The position numbers were made by a program, and so were the translations under genes. The notes under the pieces are model-generated. The model saw only the letters and a list, made by a program, of their open reading frames with translations, searched no databases and had not been told where the DNA came from. From Myxococcales bacterium (GTDB lineage: Bacteria > Myxococcota > Myxococcia > Myxococcales > UBA5297): a stretch of 64,000 nucleotides of DNA. Positions 19,179 through 26,267 of the stretch are shown here, piece by piece. Position 1 is the stretch's first letter; each line of letters opens with the position of its first letter. The DNA lies in NCBI GenBank assembly GCA_031262165.1, contig JAISIF010000071.1, positions 78-64,077 on the forward strand. The letters run 5' to 3'.

Positions 19179-19295
19179 TGAAAATGCCCCCTCGTGCGCT
19201 TCAGGAGAGACGCGGATTGGGAGGGGGCAGAAAAACAGGCGCTCGATGCGCTGAAAAAAGCGGAGCAGATTAGTGGCCGCTGCTGGAGGTGTCAA
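19179..19295 (-). promoter_or_regulatory. Candidate metK promoter plus structured leader with two terminator-like hairpins
   Basis: On the minus strand, TTGACA (19295-19290) is followed by 17 nt and then TAATCT (19272-19267). The leader then contains hairpin CAGCGC-atcga-GCGCCTG plus UUUUU (19253-19231). A second hairpin has a 9-bp GC stem, UGCCCCCUC...GAGGGGGCA (19229-19185), plus UUUUC, about 20 nt before the RBS GAGGUG. Confidence 0.3.
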
Positions 19296-19371
19296 ATTGG
19301 GCCTCTCGGATCACTGGAGACAAACCCCTGTTCCACCGGCGCGGATTCCCCATCGCGCCGCGCGTCGTTCC

Positions 19372-19941
19372 ATGACGCCGACCTTCCCCAGAGTCGCCTT
19401 GGCGCCGCTCCTGTGCTGCCTGGCGATCTCCGTCGCGAGCGCATGTGCCTCGCTTTCGGGCCAAGGCGATCCGAGGGAACTCTCCTTTCAGCCGGGGCGC
19501 TGGCTGGTGCTGCGGACCAACCTACACCACACGCCGCAGGGGGAGATCAGCGCGCTCAACTATCAGCCGCAGAACATCCTCCCCAGGTGCACGGAGGTCC
19601 TGCTGCTCGGGATCGACGGGGAGGAGATGACCTTCCGCGCGGGTGAGATGGAATACGTCTGGCGCTTCAGCGACCGCATCCGCGAGGACCGCTACGACCA
19701 TCTCTTCCACTTCTTTGCCCCGCGCTGCGAGACACGGACGCTCAACGACATCGACAAGCTCGGCATCCAGCAGGGGAAGGCAAAGGTCGGGATGACTCGC
19801 TGGGGCGTCCTCTACGCGCTGGGGTATCCGCCGGACGATGTGACACCAGACATCGCCGCCGACGTCTGGACGTATTGGCGATACCAAGATTTCCAAATGA
19901 AGGTCGTCTTCGAGAATGACGTCGTCACTTTTGTGAAATGA
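19372..19941 (+). CDS. Lipoprotein with a C-terminal BamE/SmpA-OmlA-like region
   Basis: This lies in ORF 19273..19941. The ATG at 19372 gives the signal MTPTFPRVALAPLLCCLAISVASAC. The C-terminus (GMTRWGVLYALGYPP..WTYWRY..VVFENDVV) resembles SmpA/OmlA. Confidence 0.55.
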   Translation: MTPTFPRVALAPLLCCLAISVASACASLSGQGDPRELSFQPGRWLVLRTNLHHTPQGEISALNYQPQNILPRCTEVLLLGIDGEEMTFRAGEMEYVWRFSDRIREDRYDHLFHFFAPRCETRTLNDIDKLGIQQGKAKVGMTRWGVLYALGYPPDDVTPDIAADVWTYWRYQDFQMKVVFENDVVTFVK

Positions 19942-20339: not shown

Positions 20340-20369
20340 TTGACACCGAATAACATCTTGGTTGAGAAT
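20340..20369 (+). promoter_or_regulatory. Candidate sigma70-type promoter of the kinase gene
   Basis: TTGACA (20340-20345) is followed by 18 nt and then GAGAAT (20364-20369). It lies in an AT-rich tract about 60 nt upstream of the ATG at 20428. Confidence 0.25.
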
Positions 20370-20427: not shown

Positions 20428-22374
20428 ATGGGTGTATCTTTTGGACGTTACGAGCTTCTGAAACGGATCGCCGCGGGTGGCATGGGTGAGGTCTATCTCG
20501 CCCGACAGGCAGGGCTCGAGGGTTTCGAGAAGCTCCTGGTCGTCAAGGTCCTCCTCCCTCATTTGGCAGAGGACGCCGAGTTCACCACGATGTTCCTGGA
20601 CGAGGCGCGCATCGCGGCGCGCCTAGACCACCCGAACATCGGCCAGATCTATGATCTCGGTGAGGTCGAGGGCACCTACTTCATCGCCATGGAATACATC
20701 CGCGGCGACGACATCGTCCGCCTCTGGAAGCAGTCGCGCATCAAAAACAAGCCAGTGCCGCTGGCCTTGGCCGCGCGCATCGCCGCGGACGCCGCCGCTG
20801 GCCTCGACAACGCGCACAAGGCGCTCGACGCCAATGGCAACCCGCTCTGCCTGATCCACCGCGACGTGTCGCCGCAGAACATCCTCATCAGCTACGACGG
20901 TGGCGTGAAGCTCATCGACTTTGGCGTGGCCAAGGCCTCCAGCCGCGTCTCACACACGAGCACGGGGACCATCAAAGGCAAATACGCCTACATGAGCCCT
21001 GAGCAGATCGTCGGCAAGGACATCGACCACCGCTCAGACCTCTTCGCGCTGGGTGTCGTGCTCTACGAGATGCTGACCTCGGTGCGCCTGTTCAAGCGCG
21101 AGACAGAGGTGGCCACGCTCCAGGCGGTGACTCTCGGCGAGATCCCCGCGCCTTCGTCGATCAATCCCAACATCGACCCAATCCTCGAAGGCATCCTTCT
21201 CAAGGCGCTCGCGCGCGACCGCGACGATCGCTATGAAGACGCGCAGGCCTTTCGGATGGCGCTGGAAGAGTGGATGATCTCCGAGCGTCAGCTCGGAACC
21301 TCCGCGCACCTGGCGGCCTTCATGAAGGAGCTCTACGCGGAGCGCCTCGCCGAGGAACGCGCTTCAGGGGCCTCCTTCCCAGTGATCGAGCGCACGCCAT
21401 CACAGACGACGGGTCGCTCTTCGGTGAGCGTTGCCAATGGTTCGCCACATTCGGGCGCCAGGACGATGCTCGGCAGCGGCGGGCTGAGCCAGACGCCGAG
21501 CGCGCTCCGCTCGATGAGCAGAAGCCTCATGGCCAATACCTCTGGCACCTCGCTGTCGGTGACAGAGGCCGTCTTGGCCGGAGAGCCTCCCGCTGGCGAG
21601 GCGCAACCTCTGCCACCCAAGAAGAACACGGGCCTCCTCGTCGGCGTGATCGTCCTGCTCGTGGGGCTCCTGGGCGCCGGAGGGTTCTTCGTCCTATCGT
21701 CCGAGCGCGGTGCGCCAGCCAGCCTCCCACCAGGGCCGCCACCACCACCTGTGATCGTCCAGCCCCAGCGCGTGCATCTGGTCATCGAGAGCGCGCCGCC
21801 TGGCGCGATGGTCTATTCGAAGGGTGCCTTCCTCGGAAAGACGCCCCTGGAGATCGACCGCCTCAAGGCAGAGGGCGCCGAGCTCGACCTGTCGCTGGAG
21901 CTGCCTGGACACAAGACGGCGAGCTCCTCCATCGCGTTGGCCAGGGACGGCAGCGTGCGCGTGGTGCTCGCGGAGCTGCCTCCGCCCGAGCCTGCTGCGC
22001 CACCACCACCTGTGATTGTCCAGCCCCAGCGCGTGCATCTGGTCATCGAGAGCGCGCCGCCCGGCGCGATGGTCTATTCGAAGGGCGCCTTCCTCGGAAA
22101 GACGCCCCTGGAGATCGACCGCCCCAAGGCAGAGGTCGCCGAGCTCGACCTGTCGCTGGAGCTGCCTGGACACAAGACGGCGAGCTCCTCCATCGCGTTG
22201 GCCAAAGACGGCAGCGTGCACGTGGTGCTCGCGAAGGTTCGAGAAACGCCGCCGCCTCGCCCCCCCAGGTCCGGCAGATCGTCCAGGCCCAAGGCTGCCG
22301 ATACCGCCGCGCCTGCCGATACCGCCGCGCCGCCTTCCCAGAACGGCCCGCTCGACATCGCCCTCGACCGATGA
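20428..22374 (+). CDS. Membrane Ser/Thr protein kinase with two extracytoplasmic PEGA domains
   Basis: Hanks kinase motifs are present: GGMGEVYLA, VVKV, HRDVSPQNIL, DFGVAK, YMSPEQ. A TM helix (GLLVGVIVLLVGLLGAGGFFVL) is followed by two near-identical PEGA-type units (VHLVIESAPPGAMVYSKGAFLGKTPLEID..LELPGHKTASSSIAL). Confidence 0.9.
   Translation: MGVSFGRYELLKRIAAGGMGEVYLARQAGLEGFEKLLVVKVLLPHLAEDAEFTTMFLDEARIAARLDHPNIGQIYDLGEVEGTYFIAMEYIRGDDIVRLWKQSRIKNKPVPLALAARIAADAAAGLDNAHKALDANGNPLCLIHRDVSPQNILISYDGGVKLIDFGVAKASSRVSHTSTGTIKGKYAYMSPEQIVGKDIDHRSDLFALGVVLYEMLTSVRLFKRETEVATLQAVTLGEIPAPSSINPNIDPILEGILLKALARDRDDRYEDAQAFRMALEEWMISERQLGTSAHLAAFMKELYAERLAEERASGASFPVIERTPSQTTGRSSVSVANGSPHSGARTMLGSGGLSQTPSALRSMSRSLMANTSGTSLSVTEAVLAGEPPAGEAQPLPPKKNTGLLVGVIVLLVGLLGAGGFFVLSSERGAPASLPPGPPPPPVIVQPQRVHLVIESAPPGAMVYSKGAFLGKTPLEIDRLKAEGAELDLSLELPGHKTASSSIALARDGSVRVVLAELPPPEPAAPPPPVIVQPQRVHLVIESAPPGAMVYSKGAFLGKTPLEIDRPKAEVAELDLSLELPGHKTASSSIALAKDGSVHVVLAKVRETPPPRPPRSGRSSRPKAADTAAPADTAAPPSQNGPLDIALDR
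21739..22236 (+). repeat. Near-perfect 261-bp tandem duplication (PEGA unit plus linker) inside the kinase gene
   Basis: Unit 1 starts at 21739 and unit 2 at 22000. By hand alignment there are 9 substitutions over about 237 aligned nt. Confidence 0.9.
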
Positions 22375-22634
22375 GGGTCTGGTCAGGCGCTGTGGCTCCG
22401 TTCGAGGGGCACAGAAATGTCCGCGCGATGAGGCGCGTCGTGTCGCCTCGGTCTGGCTGACCACTGGAGGAGAGGACTTCTCTCCCACTCACTGGCAAGC
22501 CTTCCTCAGGGCAATCGAGCGCTCAAGATGCAGTCTCCAAAGGCCGCCCCCTCAAAGCGGTGCGCCACCTCCCTCTGAGAGGGGGACTCCACAACGAGCC
22601 CTCTCTCCTTCACCCGCTCCCAAGAGGTCCTTCA

Positions 22635-25600
22635 ATGCTCTCGCGGTTTGGTCGGATTTTCTTCTCCCTGACCCTCGCGCTCGCTTTTGCGTCCGCCGAG
22701 CTCGTCAACATCCCCGTCGCTCTGGCGGACAACACCTCTGACGAGGCAGAGCTGCGCTTCCAGCGCGGCGTCGCCTTTTACAAGATCCGCGAATACGAGG
22801 AGGCGCTCGTCGAGTTCTTCCACTCGAATCGCCTCGTTCGAAACGCCTCGACCCTCATCAACATCGCCCGCTGCTATGAGCAGTTGAGGAAGTTCAATGA
22901 GGCATTCCGCTATTACGACGAATACCTGGCCGAGGTGAGCGACCCAGCCGCCCGCAAGATCGCCGAGGATAGCATCCAGCGCCTCGCGCCCCGCATGGCC
23001 ACGCTGCGCATCGAAACGACACCGCCCGGCGCGGAGATCTACATCGACCGCAAAAATCTGGGTTCGCTCGGCGTGACGCCCAAGACCCTGGCCATCGATC
23101 CAGGGAAAACGACCGTCATCCTCGCCCTGCCTGGCCACCGCGAGGTCACCCAGCAGGTCAACCTGGTGCTCGGCACGCAGGCTCGCCTGGAGAGCGATCT
23201 CGAGTTCATCACTGGCACGCTCGTGCTCGACGGTTCGCCGGAGGGGGCCAAAGTCCACCTGAACACGGGGGCCGACGACGAGCTCCTGTGCACGCTGCCC
23301 TGTGAGAAAGTGATGGCGCCCGGCAATCACATCCTCAGCATCGCGGCCGAGGGCCATTACTCGATGCAGCTGCCTGTCGCGATCACCCCGGACGCGCGCA
23401 CCACCTTGACGGTCGACCTCCAGGCGCTCCCGCCCGTCATGGGCGCGCTCCATGTGACCGCCAACCGCGACGGTGCCCTCGTCTCCGTGAACGACCTCGC
23501 CATCGGCATCACGCCCAACGTCGTCCACACGCTGCCCGTCGGCACCCACAAGATCCGCGTGACGATGCGGGGCATGCAGCCCTTCGAGCAGGAGGTCGTC
23601 ATCAAAGAGAACGACACCTCTCCTCTCCATGCCGAGCTGCGCTTCGCCGCCGAGATCACCACCGCCGCCACCAAGAGCGAGACGACGACCTCCGAGGCGC
23701 CTGCTTCTGTGACGGTCATCTCGTCCGACGAGATCCAGGCCTTTGGCTATTCGACGCTGCCAGAGGCCCTGCGCGCCGTGCGCGGCCTCTATTTCTCGAA
23801 TGACCGCATGTATGAGTCGATCGGCATGCGCGGTATCTCCCCGCCGGGCGGCTACAACTCCCGAATCCTCATCCTCTACAACGGCCACGCGCTCAACGAC
23901 GCCTATACGGGTCAGGCCTACATCGGCCGCGACTTCAGCATCGACCTGGCCGACGTGGAGCGCATCGAAGTCATCCGAGGCCCCGTGTCCGCCATCTATG
24001 GTTCGTCCGCTGTGTTCGGTGCCATCAACATCGTCACGCGCTCCAACCTGGGCGATCGCAATGCCGAAGTGACGGGTTCGGCTGGCACCTCGCAGACAGT
24101 CTCTGGCCGCGCCACCGGCGCCTACACGAGCAAAAACTTCGACATCATCGTCAGTGGTGGCGCTTACCGCTCGCTGAACGAGTCGAACATGTCGTTCGAC
24201 GAAGCGCGTCAGCTCCGACCGCTGCAGGAGCTGCCTGCGGACACCAAGCTCACCAACCTCGAAAACCAGGACGGTGAACGCGCCTACCACGCCGATGCCC
24301 GCGTGCGCCTGGGGGACTTCACCCTGCAGGGTTACGTCAACAGCCGAAAGAAAGATCTCGGAACGGGCAATTACACGACAGCCATCAATAGGCCCGGTGC
24401 CTTCGTCAATGACCTGCGTGGCTTTATCGAGGGCAGGTTTGACAAGAAAATGAAGCAGGGAGATTTCTCAGCGCGCTTCTATTTCGATGTCATGAATTAC
24501 AACGCTACCTATTTTTATGATGTCGACCCCTATGATGAGGAAGCCTCGTCGTGGTGGGCTGGCGGTGAGCTTCGCTACCGCACTCCAGAATTCCTCAGAC
24601 AGCGACTGACAATCGCGATCGAATACAAACACGAAGACACCGAACAATGGATGCAGGAGATTTACCCCGTCTTTCCCCAGGAACTCTTGGATGGATTGAA
24701 AGATCCCAACCAATTGAAGGCATTCCAGGATTCGCTCTTATCATCACCATCAGGTCTCCCCGGCATGATTGAGCGTTGGGATGATCTGATGATCAAGACA
24801 AAGCGCGACATATTCTCGGGAAGCCTCTCCGATGAAATCCGCCTGGGGCGGCATCTGACCATTCATGCGGGAGGCCGTATCGACCTCTATCAATACAGCC
24901 CGACGGAGTGTCTGATGACGAATGGGGATGGCAGCTGCCAGACATTCTTGCAGCAGGTTTGGCTGGAAGGGCCTGATCGGGAGACGCTCCTAAAAGATGA
25001 CGACAAGAATATGGATGAATCCCATCTCAGGATTGCCTGGAGTGCCCGCATGGCGTTCATCCTCCATGACATCATTCAGGGCGGTGTCACCAAGCTCCTC
25101 GGCTCGACGGCATTCCGCGAGCCATCCGTCTATGAGCTCTATTTCTTTGACGGTGCGACTCAGATCCCCAACCCATACCGTCTCACCAAACCCGAACAGA
25201 TCTATTCTCTGGAGTTGGAACACACTCAGGAGCTCACCGAAGAATTGCGCTTCATTGCCTCTGGCTACATCAACTGGATCAATCGGCTGGTCTCTATGCG
25301 CAAAAGCGAGGACAAGATCATGACCGTCACAGCGGATGATGGCTGTGAGGTGTATCCATGCTCGGCCACCATCCAATCTACCGAGGAGTTATTCCAATAT
25401 GCGAACATGGAAAAAACGCTGCGCGTCGAAGGGGCCGAGCTCGGGTTTCGCTGGAAGCCAGGCATTCTCTCAATGCTGCAATTGAGCTATTCCTTCCAGC
25501 ACCTGACGCTTCCCAAGGATATTGAAAACCCCGAGACTATCGAAGCGAATATGCCCAACCACATGATCTCATTGAAAGCGATGGTCCCGCTGTATTCGAC

Positions 25601-25889
25601 GATGGCCGTCCTCTCGATCGAATCCATCTATAACAGCGCCCGCCTGACGGTGCCGGACATCGATGAGGATGGGGTGGTCGACGAGAATACACTCTTCAAG
25701 ACCGGTGACTCCTTCTGGCTCAACGTGGGGCTATCGGGCGCCTTCAAAGACGGTCGTCTGCGCTACTTCGTCGGTGTCAAGAACCTCCTGGACGATCGCG
25801 CGATGATGCCCGCGAGTGACGACGGCTATCTCTTGACCATCCCGAACTATGGACGCCGCCTCCAGCTCACGCTGACGGGCAGTTTCTGA
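22635..25889 (+). CDS. TonB-dependent outer-membrane receptor with an N-terminal TPR + 3x PEGA extension
   Basis: This lies in ORF 22560..25889. The ATG at 22635 follows AGAGG and gives the signal peptide MLSRFGRIFFSLTLALAFASA. A TPR-like segment precedes three PEGA-like units (LRIETTPPGAEIYID.., LVLDGSPEGAKVHLN.., LHVTANRDGALVSVND..). The plug follows (VTVISSDEIQAFGYSTLPEALRAVRGLYF..IEVIRGPVSAIYGSSAVFGAINIVT). A long beta-barrel ends in the aromatic terminus ..LTLTGSF. Confidence 0.85.
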   Translation: MLSRFGRIFFSLTLALAFASAELVNIPVALADNTSDEAELRFQRGVAFYKIREYEEALVEFFHSNRLVRNASTLINIARCYEQLRKFNEAFRYYDEYLAEVSDPAARKIAEDSIQRLAPRMATLRIETTPPGAEIYIDRKNLGSLGVTPKTLAIDPGKTTVILALPGHREVTQQVNLVLGTQARLESDLEFITGTLVLDGSPEGAKVHLNTGADDELLCTLPCEKVMAPGNHILSIAAEGHYSMQLPVAITPDARTTLTVDLQALPPVMGALHVTANRDGALVSVNDLAIGITPNVVHTLPVGTHKIRVTMRGMQPFEQEVVIKENDTSPLHAELRFAAEITTAATKSETTTSEAPASVTVISSDEIQAFGYSTLPEALRAVRGLYFSNDRMYESIGMRGISPPGGYNSRILILYNGHALNDAYTGQAYIGRDFSIDLADVERIEVIRGPVSAIYGSSAVFGAINIVTRSNLGDRNAEVTGSAGTSQTVSGRATGAYTSKNFDIIVSGGAYRSLNESNMSFDEARQLRPLQELPADTKLTNLENQDGERAYHADARVRLGDFTLQGYVNSRKKDLGTGNYTTAINRPGAFVNDLRGFIEGRFDKKMKQGDFSARFYFDVMNYNATYFYDVDPYDEEASSWWAGGELRYRTPEFLRQRLTIAIEYKHEDTEQWMQEIYPVFPQELLDGLKDPNQLKAFQDSLLSSPSGLPGMIERWDDLMIKTKRDIFSGSLSDEIRLGRHLTIHAGGRIDLYQYSPTECLMTNGDGSCQTFLQQVWLEGPDRETLLKDDDKNMDESHLRIAWSARMAFILHDIIQGGVTKLLGSTAFREPSVYELYFFDGATQIPNPYRLTKPEQIYSLELEHTQELTEELRFIASGYINWINRLVSMRKSEDKIMTVTADDGCEVYPCSATIQSTEELFQYANMEKTLRVEGAELGFRWKPGILSMLQLSYSFQHLTLPKDIENPETIEANMPNHMISLKAMVPLYSTMAVLSIESIYNSARLTVPDIDEDGVVDENTLFKTGDSFWLNVGLSGAFKDGRLRYFVGVKNLLDDRAMMPASDDGYLLTIPNYGRRLQLTLTGSF

Positions 25890-25913
25890 GGAATTCTCAG
25901 AAGCTGAAATGAA

Positions 25914-25954
25914 ACAGGGGCTCGGCATACTGGTCGCCGTGCCCCTGTTTTTTT
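25914..25954 (+). terminator. Rho-independent terminator after the TonB-dependent receptor gene
   Basis: The stem ACAGGGGC..GCCCCTGT is followed by TTTTTTT. Confidence 0.7.
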
Positions 25955-26267
25955 GTGCAAATCGAATTCGATTCCCGCAAGCGGGCCTGGGAAGAGAGAA
26001 TGCGCAGCACAAAAAAGCCCTCTCTCATTTGATGGGGGAGGGTCGAAGGGAAGCGAGGGGATGAAGGAGCGACGAATTGCTCATTTCAGAGCAATTCGAA
26101 TTGAAGTTGACGATCACTCCGGCCGGACGCCTCTACAATTCGATTCGGACGCGTCAATGGAATCGCAGGGGGCAGCTTGCTGCGCCCCTGCACAAGATTC
26201 TTAATCCCATTTCTCTGCCGTCATTTCGTCGATCCATGAATATCAATTCAAAACGCTATCGTTTCAC

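Follow-up and report, generated by a model that had tools for sequence, protein, structure and literature searches.

In the window analysed here, a stretch of 64,000 nucleotides from a Myxococcales bacterium, a Hanks-type Ser/Thr kinase with periplasmic PEGA domains is encoded directly upstream of a TonB-dependent receptor bearing an N-terminal TPR–PEGA extension, and the two proteins probably make up a previously undescribed signalling link between both membranes. The pairing recurs across the myxobacteria and is not due to chance. We put at even chances that the pair is a conserved myxobacterial envelope-spanning module, in which the periplasmic end of the inner-membrane partner docks on the receptor extension and so alters kinase activity. 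Docking of the kinase's C-terminal tail on the TPR is favoured over a contact between PEGA domains. Physical contact, the touching surfaces and the direction of signalling are what we infer.

At present, TonB-dependent receptors are understood to signal by a single scheme, running from an STN domain through an anti-sigma factor to an ECF sigma factor, and TonB-dependent transducers normally carry an N-terminal STN-type domain that signals to the anti-sigma factor. PEGA domains are common as extracytoplasmic modules of myxobacterial kinases; to our knowledge, myxobacterial Hanks-type kinases are very many, and few have known inputs. In the literature searched, no description of a kinase/TPR-PEGA-receptor pair was found, and we know of no characterised signalling route from a TonB receptor to a PEGA kinase. 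If the proposed link exists, a large family of myxobacterial Hanks-type kinases would gain a defined route for extracellular input, information would have a second way, different in mechanism, from the outer membrane into the cytoplasm, and the PEGA and TPR extensions of outer-membrane receptors would acquire a function.

The kinase gene

The features of the kinase gene and its immediate surroundings are as follows.

20340–20369, + strand: sigma-70-like promoter candidate TTGACA-18-GAGAAT, 5' of the kinase gene (consensus scan)
20428–22374, + strand: gene for a bitopic Hanks-type Ser/Thr kinase, 648 aa, a partner of the 'K1' lineage (ORF, translation, Pfam and NCBIfam matches)
20449–21237, + strand: cytoplasmic kinase catalytic domain, aa 8–270 (Pfam Pkinase PF00069, E 4.5e-35)
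21631–21696, + strand: single transmembrane helix, aa 402–423, with KK N-terminal to the helix (hydropathy scan)
21769–22227, + strand: two periplasmic PEGA beta-sandwich domains, aa 448–514 and 535–600 (Pfam PEGA, AF2)
22249–22347, + strand: Pro/Ala/Arg-rich linker, predicted to be disordered, aa 608–640 (AF2 pLDDT about 47–53)
22348–22371, + strand: conserved extreme C-terminal peptide PLDIALDR-COOH, proposed docking motif (tail comparison across partners)
22375–22634, + strand: spacer between the two genes, 260 bp and unusually long for such a pair (other loci compared)

The catalytic set is complete in the translation, with the beta3 Lys in VVKVL, HRDVSPQN (HRD at aa 144–146, 20857–20865), DFG (aa 164–166, 20917–20925) and an APE-like SPE, and these motif positions are nearly invariant in the kinase alignment. 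NF033483 also covers the catalytic domain, at 262 bits and under its cut-off. By the positive-inside rule, the KK end of the transmembrane helix would face the cytoplasm. The earlier note had described a single helix followed by two PEGA units, and both were recovered: Pfam PEGA (PF08308) matches two stretches (E 3e-18, 65.9 bits against a cut-off of 20.8), and AF2 models aa 428–648 as two beta-sandwiches with a pLDDT of 88–98. The two units form a 261-bp tandem duplication of 96% identity (TRF repeat 21737–22233). In the same model, the last ~40 residues are without secondary structure, at a pLDDT of about 50.

The promoter candidate is weak evidence, because such sites are no commoner than in shuffled sequence. 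Scans of the spacer (22375–22634) returned no Rfam family and no terminator-like site. At many other loci an ATG lies within tens of nucleotides of the kinase stop; with a spacer of 260 bp, co-transcription is therefore less certain in the window than elsewhere.

The receptor gene

The receptor gene lies on the same strand, its true start being the ATG at 22635, 260 bp past the kinase stop, which agrees with the arrangement first described. A protein from a Myxococcales MAG (P0001) is 100% identical to it.

22635–25889, + strand: gene for a TonB-dependent receptor with an extension of TPR and three PEGA domains (ORF, translation, Pfam and NCBIfam)
22635–22727, + strand: signal peptide, aa 1–31, ...VALA/DNT (cleavage site inferred)
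22728–22994, + strand: two-repeat TPR module with capping helices, aa 32–120 (AF2 helices, consensus-TPR matches)
22998–23633, + strand: three PEGA beta-sandwich domains, aa 122–188, 194–261 and 269–333 (Pfam, AF2, Foldseek)
23652–23672, + strand: TonB-box-like motif EITTAAT, aa 340–346, between PEGA3 and the plug (family consensus xVTAASK)
23691–24023, + strand: Plug domain (PF07715, E 5.4e-21, 75.6 bits against a cut-off of 23.9)
24024–25886, + strand: beta-barrel ending in ...LTGSF (TIGR01785 alignment, PF00593 in homologues)

Signal peptide, TPR, three PEGA units, plug and LTGSF end, all of which the earlier note had read from the sequence, are confirmed, and the mature N-terminus ADNTADEAD is conserved in the alignment of receptor homologues. 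Pfam scores for the helical part stay below the cut-offs (TPR_1 23.7 bits, E 4e-5, against 27.8; TPR_2 22.2 bits, E 1e-4, against 27). AF2 models the extension with a mean pLDDT of 90.4 as five helices, themselves above 90, and three beta-sandwiches; the helices match CTPR2 (1na3) in Foldseek with a TM score of 0.86, normalised to the target, and phmmer aligns the segment with consensus TPR proteins at E 1e-7 to 3e-17. As modelled, the helical module is structurally a TPR. The PEGA assignment is strong, with three stretches at E 2e-30 and 104.9 bits against a cut-off of 20.8. Failure of the receptor units in profile searches would, according to the earlier note, have told against its idea; the units of both proteins pass the Pfam search. 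Foldseek further matches the extension with carboxypeptidase-regulatory/transthyretin-like domains, and a sub-threshold PF13620 match (24.5 bits against 32.3) overlaps PEGA3, which shares the CarboxypepD_reg fold class but belongs to a different family.

Residue A344 of the TonB-box-like motif is invariant in the receptor alignment, with conservation of at least 90% at A345 and K347; xVTAASK is a putative TonB box by its resemblance to the VVTA-type boxes of BtuB and FepA. TIGR01785 aligns end to end over residues 341–1085 of a 1085-aa query, which began one codon early, with 98.8 bits against a cut-off of 316.85. The barrel family PF00593 stays under threshold on the window receptor and is present in homologues of 34–45% identity; the window barrel is longer by about 100 residues, which fall where every homologue of the alignment has gaps. 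Judged by homology, the protein is very likely a TonB-dependent receptor with a barrel. The usual signalling domain is missing, as had been claimed: STN (PF07660) gives no match to the receptor at E<=0.1 and is absent from the Pfam domains of the 120 homologues listed.

Gene linkage and co-divergence

The receptor set comprised 94 non-redundant loci, 79 of them with at least 1.5 kb of upstream DNA. The gene pair is syntenic in many other genomes, a kinase lying directly upstream on the same strand at 45 of the 79 loci. At four further loci its place is taken by a REC-DUF4388 protein whose periplasmic part is the same, at one by a divergent tail-carrying kinase, and a tail-bearing partial ORF is found at four loci with truncated upstream DNA. 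Linkage in 57–63% of loci is accompanied by receptor extensions that are only 35–50% identical. The kinases fall into two deeply divergent lineages, K1 and K2, each of which tracks one receptor clade, and kinase and receptor distances are correlated (Mantel r 0.72 overall, 0.86 in K1 and 0.70 in K2), values reached by none of 2000 permutations.

The neighbourhood is otherwise variable. In the window the pair is surrounded by metK, a putative lipoprotein gene, lysS, xerC/D and metH; flanking genes differ between loci and, besides the kinase, no gene cluster occurs in more than 13 of them. In some clades an MFS transporter and an acetyltransferase gene lie 3' of the receptor. Neither the window neighbours nor the conserved-neighbour survey include a FecR-type anti-sigma or an ECF sigma gene adjoining the pair, and no ExbB/ExbD-like genes accompany it in the neighbourhoods examined. 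The earlier note had proposed that kinase and receptor are coupled in the periplasm through their PEGA domains; linkage, co-divergence and the lack of any other conserved neighbour support the coupling, but do not single out this mechanism.

The linkage has exceptions. About a third of the receptor loci, mainly in the Myxococcus, Corallococcus and Archangium clade, retain the conserved extension in full but have no partner gene beside it, and the extension may therefore have a kinase-independent function. One Pyxidicoccus genome encodes a tail-bearing PEGA kinase that is unlinked to the receptor.

Tail and TPR conservation

The most constant feature of the partners is their C-terminus. Its consensus, ...P-[DP]-L-[DGE]-I-[KR]-x-[EG]-R-COOH, is found in 46 of 48 complete partners, the window version being PLDIALDR, and an ending of the form [ILV][KR..]xxR, likewise present in 46 of the 48 adjacent partners, occurs in only 61 of 4617 background ORFs (1.3%). 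At conserved positions the codons vary synonymously and K and R are exchanged, so that selection appears to act on the tail protein and not on a Shine-Dalgarno sequence. In the AF2 model of the window kinase, the tail follows a linker with predicted disorder. The TPR is in turn the best conserved part of the receptor extension, with R66, N70, N76, R79, E82 and R92 kept in 103–106 of 106 extensions. With this tail peptide and these near-invariant TPR residues, the docking idea lends itself to direct tests by peptides and point mutants.

Individual loci add to this picture. The one divergent extension, without the near-invariant TPR residues, is paired with a tail-less kinase (L052), a single case; at another locus (L016), the adjacent K1 kinase has neither PEGA nor tail and the TPR is intact. 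A tail-less PEGA kinase paralogue (P0162) does not adjoin a receptor, and the gene of a tail-bearing one (P0227) stops 6 bp short of that for a PEGA receptor. When tail and extension were scanned for covariation, phylogeny dominated the signal and nothing TPR-specific emerged. Finally, L109, L115, L126 and L130 encode REC+PATAN (DUF4388) in place of the cytoplasmic kinase, joined to a transmembrane helix, PEGA and tail that share homology with K2 kinases (iE down to 1e-17). Given this clade, the comparison does not favour an output that is always Ser/Thr phosphorylation.

Discussion

In the mechanism that we propose, the inner-membrane partner would combine a cytoplasmic kinase, one transmembrane helix, one or more periplasmic PEGA domains and a flexible Pro-rich arm that ends in the peptide ...L-D/G-I-K/R-x-x-R-COOH. 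Its periplasmic end would dock on the receptor extension, a two-repeat TPR and three PEGA domains N-terminal to the TonB box, which corresponds to the STN position of classical transducers. The free C-terminal peptide would most probably be bound by the TPR, as in other TPR–peptide systems, with the PEGA domains in the role of spacers or of additional contacts. At the outer membrane, binding of a ligand and movement of the plug by TonB would then change kinase activity in the cytoplasm, and the output would be phosphorylation, not the release of an ECF sigma factor. A broader proposal, which we make tentatively and hold with some doubt, is that of a new class of TonB-dependent envelope signalling, widespread in Myxococcota, in which the TPR at the receptor tip captures the ...LDI[KR]xxR-COOH of inner-membrane signalling proteins that can replace one another, be they REC-PATAN or Hanks-type kinases of both lineages, and couples cell-surface events to Ser/Thr phosphorylation or to polarity/motility regulators instead of ECF sigma factors.

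The contact could instead be made between the PEGA domains of kinase and receptor, with tail and TPR secondary or otherwise used. PEGA domains are periplasmic in both proteins, and the kinase PEGA of the window resembles receptor PEGA1 (28–37% identity, E about 1e-7) more closely than the receptor PEGAs resemble each other. A Pfam PEGA match in 34 of 48 linked kinases speaks for such a contact, and it also fits tail docking. Among partners the match is, however, rarer than the tail; tail and TPR residues being the more universal, PEGA–PEGA contact no longer stands out as the mechanism, and we regard it as unlikely. PEGA kinases without the tail are moreover not linked to receptors, and in Corallococcus a related kinase without PEGA adjoins a receptor without extension, the PEGA units being on a third protein. 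The number of kinase PEGA domains varies between one and two, with a recent duplication in the window, and therefore suggests a spacer and not a specific interface. Contact may also be dispensable altogether, if the receptor imports a substrate and the kinase PEGA binds this substrate or its product in the periplasm, in the manner of Bacteroides hybrid two-component sensors beside SusC/D. Adjacency and co-divergence alone are equally well explained in this way, PEGA domains are similar in fold to carboxypeptidase regulatory domains, and the MFS transporter and acetyltransferase genes would fit a real uptake pathway. Such sensing nevertheless seems to us less likely still: it leaves unexplained a highly conserved periplasmic TPR-(PEGA)3 in front of the TonB box, a tail on a disordered arm that is common to partners with unrelated cytoplasmic domains, and the joint loss of tail and TPR invariants in L052.

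If there is contact, information or force might also pass from the inner to the outer membrane, with arm and tail holding, gating or positioning the receptor in a TonB-like or Tol-like manner, as directed by cytoplasmic phosphorylation or by REC/PATAN inputs. The partner layout is indeed TonB-like (N-terminal cytoplasmic part, one transmembrane helix, Pro-rich periplasmic stretch, C-terminal docking element), the cytoplasmic module is interchangeable with the receiver-type (input) module REC+PATAN, and envelope machines, the type IV pilus motor among them, are targets of PATAN response regulators (bioRxiv 10.1101/2021.06.11.447907). Yet the receptor has a TonB-box-like motif of its own and therefore probably draws energy through TonB itself, and the pair comes without ExbB/ExbD-like genes. 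Bitopic Hanks-type kinases with extracytoplasmic domains, for example PASTA kinases, are usually sensors, and we consider this reversed direction improbable. It is very improbable that kinase and receptor are merely co-expressed, or that the kinase controls receptor expression through a cytoplasmic target, the shared PEGA reflecting how common this domain is. PEGA kinases are certainly abundant (more than 6000 homologues of the window kinase at E<=1e-40, most among the matches listed carrying PEGA), and many multi-PEGA proteins other than receptors exist; but linkage persists despite the divergence of the extensions and differing flanks, the tail motif is specific to receptor-linked partners, and the periplasmic part is retained despite the swap of the cytoplasmic domain.

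Docking of a kinase tail on a receptor TPR can be set beside several known systems. Cell-surface signalling systems such as FecA-FecR-FecI, FpvA and FoxA likewise have a TonB-dependent receptor with an extra periplasmic domain before the TonB box and an adjacent bitopic inner-membrane partner with an N-terminal cytoplasmic signalling domain and a periplasmic C-terminal part. In contrast to these, the window pair is without STN, FecR-type anti-sigma and ECF sigma factor, its extension consists of TPR and three PEGA domains, a Hanks-type kinase (in one clade REC-PATAN) takes the place of the partner, and the output would be phosphorylation instead of regulated proteolysis and sigma release. Transporters of the Oar and SusC/RagA types also carry a transthyretin-like beta-sandwich N-terminal to the TonB box, and Oar is myxobacterial like the window receptor; they have one CarboxypepD_reg domain where three PEGA domains and a TPR are found here, and we know of no kinase partner described for Oar or SusC. 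A survey of TBDTs distinguishes five architectures from combinations of CarboxypepD_reg, CarbopepD_reg_2, STN and AMIN, and its text contains neither PEGA nor TPR (Gomez-Santos et al. 2019, PMC6434023).

In the polysaccharide utilisation loci of Bacteroides, the SusC/D genes similarly adjoin the gene of a hybrid two-component sensor, a kinase of the inner membrane whose sensor domain lies in the periplasm; this is a histidine kinase that binds the imported glycan, contact with the transporter is not needed, and SusC, unlike the window receptor, has no TPR-PEGA extension. TPR domains that bind extreme C-terminal peptides are known from Hop TPR1/2A-EEVD and Pex5-PTS1. The window pair likewise has a short TPR array with conserved Asn/Arg on one protein and, on the product of the linked gene, a conserved motif that ends in a free carboxylate. 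It would have only this logic in common with them, its module acting in the periplasm, and the receptor TPR bears no significant similarity to Hop TPR2A (E 0.23). In kinase layout the window pair resembles receptor-type Hanks kinases such as PknB/Stk1, in which a cytoplasmic kinase and one transmembrane helix are followed by repeated extracytoplasmic beta-rich sensor domains. There the domains are PASTA repeats and the partner is a peptidoglycan fragment, whereas the window kinase has PEGA domains and an outer-membrane receptor as its proposed partner, and ends in a conserved peptide at the tip of an arm predicted to be disordered.

Results

The kinase and receptor genes

The two genes described in the earlier note are real: reading frames, translations and the 260-bp gap between them were confirmed, and domain searches recovered the claimed PEGA units in both proteins as well as the plug of the receptor.

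Features of the gene pair
20428–22374, + strand: kinase gene, encoding 648 aa
Kinase, aa 8–270: Pkinase domain (Pfam, E 4.5e-35)
Kinase, aa 402–423: sole hydrophobic helix, two lysines just before it
Kinase, two stretches: PEGA (Pfam, E 3e-18)
22635–25889, + strand: receptor gene, ATG at 22635, 260 bp 3' of the kinase stop, encoding 1084 aa
Receptor: signal peptide ending ...VALA, followed by DNT
Receptor: TPR-like segment (Pfam matches under the cut-off)
Receptor, three stretches: PEGA (Pfam, E 2e-30)
Receptor, between third PEGA and plug, at the position expected for a TonB box: TonB-box-like motif (xVTAASK in the family, EITTAAT in the window)
Receptor: Plug (Pfam, E 5e-21)
Receptor: barrel, aligned end to end with TIGR01785, C-terminus ...LTGSF

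The kinase retains intact catalytic Lys, HRD and DFG motifs, and its last 220 residues are inferred to be periplasmic. For this part, AlphaFold2 predicts two beta-sandwiches (pLDDT 88–98) and no secondary structure in the final ~40 residues (pLDDT about 50). The two PEGA units (window 21737–22233) are a 261-bp tandem duplication with 96% identity. Close homologues (proteins P0121–P0135) carry two unlike PEGA domains, an 'a' type (GTLNLLTDPKGAQV...) and then a 'b' type, and judged by sequence the 'a' domain of the window kinase seems to have been replaced by a second 'b' copy. The receptor is 100% identical to a database entry (P0001, from a Myxococcales MAG), but the closest database match of the kinase reaches only 60% identity; in the source annotation, the kinase gene was thus apparently either not predicted or predicted differently.

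Its plug, together with the homology of its barrel, identifies the second protein as a TonB-dependent receptor. A Pfam scan of it found no STN domain and, as STN, FecR and FecI were tested and absent, it lies outside the classical transducer family. The extension, i.e. the periplasmic front end with TPR and PEGA units, is predicted by AlphaFold2 (mean pLDDT 90.4) to consist of five helices and three beta-sandwiches; in Foldseek the helices resemble consensus TPR, and the sandwiches resemble tandem-domain proteins and carboxypeptidase regulatory domains. A phmmer search against the PDB describes the TPR as two consensus-like repeats. The window receptor also exceeds all its homologues in length by ~100 aa (residues ~690–1050, window ~24700–25800), owing to several barrel insertions that are gaps in every homologue (columns ~707–735, 806–850, 965–990 and 1097–1112 of the family alignment A1). 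At 0.55, the G+C content of window 24001–26000 is below that of the surrounding DNA (about 0.65).

The pair is flanked by housekeeping genes (metK, lysS, xerC/D, metH), and none of the genes near it was identified as anti-sigma, ECF sigma or TonB/ExbBD. Its 260-bp spacer is atypically long, and no riboswitch or other RNA matched Rfam at E<=1 in and around it. Upstream of the kinase, 19255–19941 encodes a putative lipoprotein of 228 aa (signal sequence ...AISVASAC) without Pfam match and without counterpart in the other fetched loci. FHA domains typically read phospho-threonine; the FHA-domain protein encoded at 128–2200, 18 kb further upstream, is too distant from the kinase for us to link the two.

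Receptor family and linkage to kinases

The receptor family comprises at least 695 proteins at E<=1e-10 among the candidates scored. Where source names are given for the listed homologues, all are myxobacterial or deltaproteobacterial taxa, and all listed or aligned homologues share the TPR-(PEGA)3-Plug-barrel layout. Searched as a profile, the extension as a unit was confined to residues about 20–340 of ~940–1000-aa proteins, fragments aside. When a genome collection was scanned with the full-length alignment, the generic plug pattern dominated and only ~24 of 80 loci among the matches listed belonged to the family; a metagenome scan with the extension alone gave a far better yield. We retrieved 24 loci from genomes and 80 from metagenomes and scanned each for kinases. 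Removal of near-duplicates left 94 loci, 79 of them with at least 1.5 kb of upstream DNA.

The gene pair, which the earlier note had proposed to look for in other genomes, indeed recurs: a same-strand Ser/Thr kinase gene ends just upstream of the receptor in 45 of these 79 loci (57%), in many with the receptor ATG within tens of nucleotides of the kinase stop. The kinase is divergent at one further locus and convergent at two. Loci with the linked pair stem from MAGs and metagenome contigs, assigned where known to Polyangiaceae, Kofleriaceae, Archangiaceae, Myxococcaceae or uncultured Myxococcales. Genes around the pair vary, and all-against-all clustering of the locus ORFs revealed no other conserved neighbour (FHA, phosphatase, TonB/ExbBD or sigma/anti-sigma). 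The linked kinases form two deeply separated lineages, K1, which includes the window kinase, and K2, which resembles the latter only by generic kinase similarity, and each is tied to its own receptor clades. Furthermore, kinase and receptor distances are correlated (Mantel r 0.72 for all pairs, 0.86 for K1 and 0.70 for K2). The top database matches of the window kinase come from contigs whose lengths equal those of the contigs with the top receptor matches. Altogether, the comparison of sequences indicates that kinase and receptor are a stably inherited, selected gene pair. A third of the receptor loci have no adjacent partner and keep the extension; in the Myxococcus/Corallococcus/Archangium clade, the receptor is kept and the adjacent kinase is not.

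The partner tail and the receptor TPR

PEGA in the linked kinases was assessed by Pfam scans, which replaced too insensitive HMMs derived from the receptors. Nearly all linked kinases have one TM helix, and 34 of 48 have a Pfam PEGA match. The C-terminus P-[DP]-L-[DGE]-I-[KR]-x-[EG]-R-COOH, preceded by a stretch rich in Pro, Ala, Ser, Arg and Lys, is found in 46 of 48 complete partners (PLDIALDR in the window; GLDIKIGR, DLGIKAER, QLDIKEGR and SDIRLER elsewhere), and only 1.3% of background ORFs end in this pattern. By these counts, the tail is more universal among linked partners than Pfam-detected PEGA. We considered and rejected the tail as a by-product of a Shine-Dalgarno sequence: synonymous codons are used at the conserved positions, Lys (AAG/AAA) and Arg (CGN) replace each other, and the next ATG follows the stop at differing distances. 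The first two points argue that selection acts on the peptide rather than on a ribosome-binding site within its codons.

The nearest homologues of the window kinase bear the tail, and another class of homologues, of ~680 aa, ends in a PEGA strand without it. One tail-less homologue (P0162) has no receptor alongside; the gene of one with a tail (P0227) stops 6 bp upstream of a PEGA receptor. At locus L016, the adjacent partner has neither PEGA nor tail. The cultured myxobacterium Pyxidicoccus trucidator (Myxococcaceae) encodes a tail-bearing PEGA kinase (P0237, ...GGIKGTR; locus L165, 10001–11632) that adjoins no receptor and has ABC transporter genes and PhoD as neighbours. A TPR-PEGA receptor of this species (P0046) is recorded on a contig of equal length, probably the same one, and P0237 is a candidate unlinked partner.

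On the receptor side, the TPR is the best-conserved segment of the extension, with R66, N70, N76, R79, E82 and R92 kept in 103–106 of 106 extensions. The sole exception in these residues is locus L052, where the adjacent kinase has no tail. Mutual information between tail and extension columns (53 pairs) was uninformative: the top pairs did not cluster and mainly reflected phylogeny. K/R at tail position -3 seemed to be linked to an Asp in the TPR capping helix, but this signal is confounded by clade and hence not used as evidence.

Partner variants

Within one receptor sub-clade, the partner at four loci is not a kinase.

Partners with REC and DUF4388
L109, 3277–5061
L115, 4202–5881
L126, 3005–4570
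L130, 3–1451

These proteins consist of REC and DUF4388, a TM helix, a PEGA-like domain and the tail DLGIRLRR. DUF4388 is the PATAN domain (bioRxiv 10.1101/2021.06.11.447907). In their periplasmic part, they are homologous to K2 kinases (iE down to 1e-17). As this part and the place beside the receptor are kept with REC-PATAN, the cytoplasmic module is interchangeable.

A second variant, in two Corallococcus genomes and a Myxococcaceae MAG, comprises three genes.

Three-gene variant
L065, 4234–8932
L066, 4405–9097
L075, 4345–8887

Here a K1-like kinase stops at its TM helix, the second gene encodes a separate TM-anchored protein with two PEGA domains, and the third an ordinary short TonB-dependent receptor without extension. 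Neither TPR nor tail is present, and the split into different reading frames is identical in all three genomes.

Discussion

The layout of the pair mirrors classical cell-surface signalling, in which, likewise, the receptor carries an extra periplasmic domain before the TonB box and the partner is a bitopic inner-membrane protein with a cytoplasmic signalling domain and a periplasmic C-terminal part. We thus propose that the periplasmic end of the partner may dock on the receptor extension, and that ligand- and TonB-dependent movement at the outer membrane would be relayed to the kinase. More specifically, the partner tail may insert into the receptor TPR, with PEGA domains as spacers or secondary contacts. 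Several comparative observations point to such docking. The partner ends in a free C-terminal peptide that is conserved and borne by a disordered arm, and Asn and Arg residues of the receptor TPR are invariant. One locus has lost the tail together with the TPR invariants, and unlinked paralogues have no tail. Binding of C-terminal peptides by TPR domains is established in other systems, as in Hop-EEVD and Pex5-PTS1.

The earlier note had instead proposed a periplasmic PEGA-PEGA contact, with Ser/Thr phosphorylation as output in place of an ECF sigma factor. Functional coupling of kinase and receptor is strongly supported by linkage and co-divergence, and PEGA units do occur on both proteins; yet the tail and the TPR are more universal, hence PEGA-PEGA is not the best-supported mode of contact. 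Coupling could also arise if the receptor imported a compound that the kinase then senses, with no contact between the two, or if signals ran inside-out, the partner controlling or tethering the receptor. Mere co-regulation of the two genes is a further alternative; of all these, it explains the tail and the swap of the cytoplasmic domain least well. Docking of the tail in the TPR, followed by relay, is the reading we favor, under which the pair would carry out TonB-dependent signalling across the envelope using new components; it yields a concrete, testable docking hypothesis. The receptors that keep the extension with no partner beside them, the partner at L016 and the long spacer in the window call for caution.

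In fold class, the extension matches the CarboxypepD_reg extension of Oar and SusC, although it does not pass the profile of that family. The survey of 34,893 TonB-dependent transporters by Gomez-Santos et al. (PMC6434023) distinguished five architectures, defined by how four named N-terminal Pfam domains are combined; PEGA and TPR are not mentioned in its text. Full-text searches found no papers linking PEGA domains or Hanks-type kinases, including myxobacterial ones, with TonB-dependent receptors, and database records yielded no information on P0001 or P0046.

Two observations concern the wider family. A frameshift-split member is encoded on a 1.1-Mb contig (L024, JASGHA010000013.1) whose MAG bears the name of a betaproteobacterium, Rubrivivax sp. 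Either a myxobacterial contig was mislabelled or misbinned, or the family occurs, rarely, outside Myxococcota. In some clades, though not in the window, the receptor is followed by acetyltransferase and MFS transporter genes (L167, 10641–12410; L001, 10922–12515), which hints at a real uptake pathway and at a possible substrate class.
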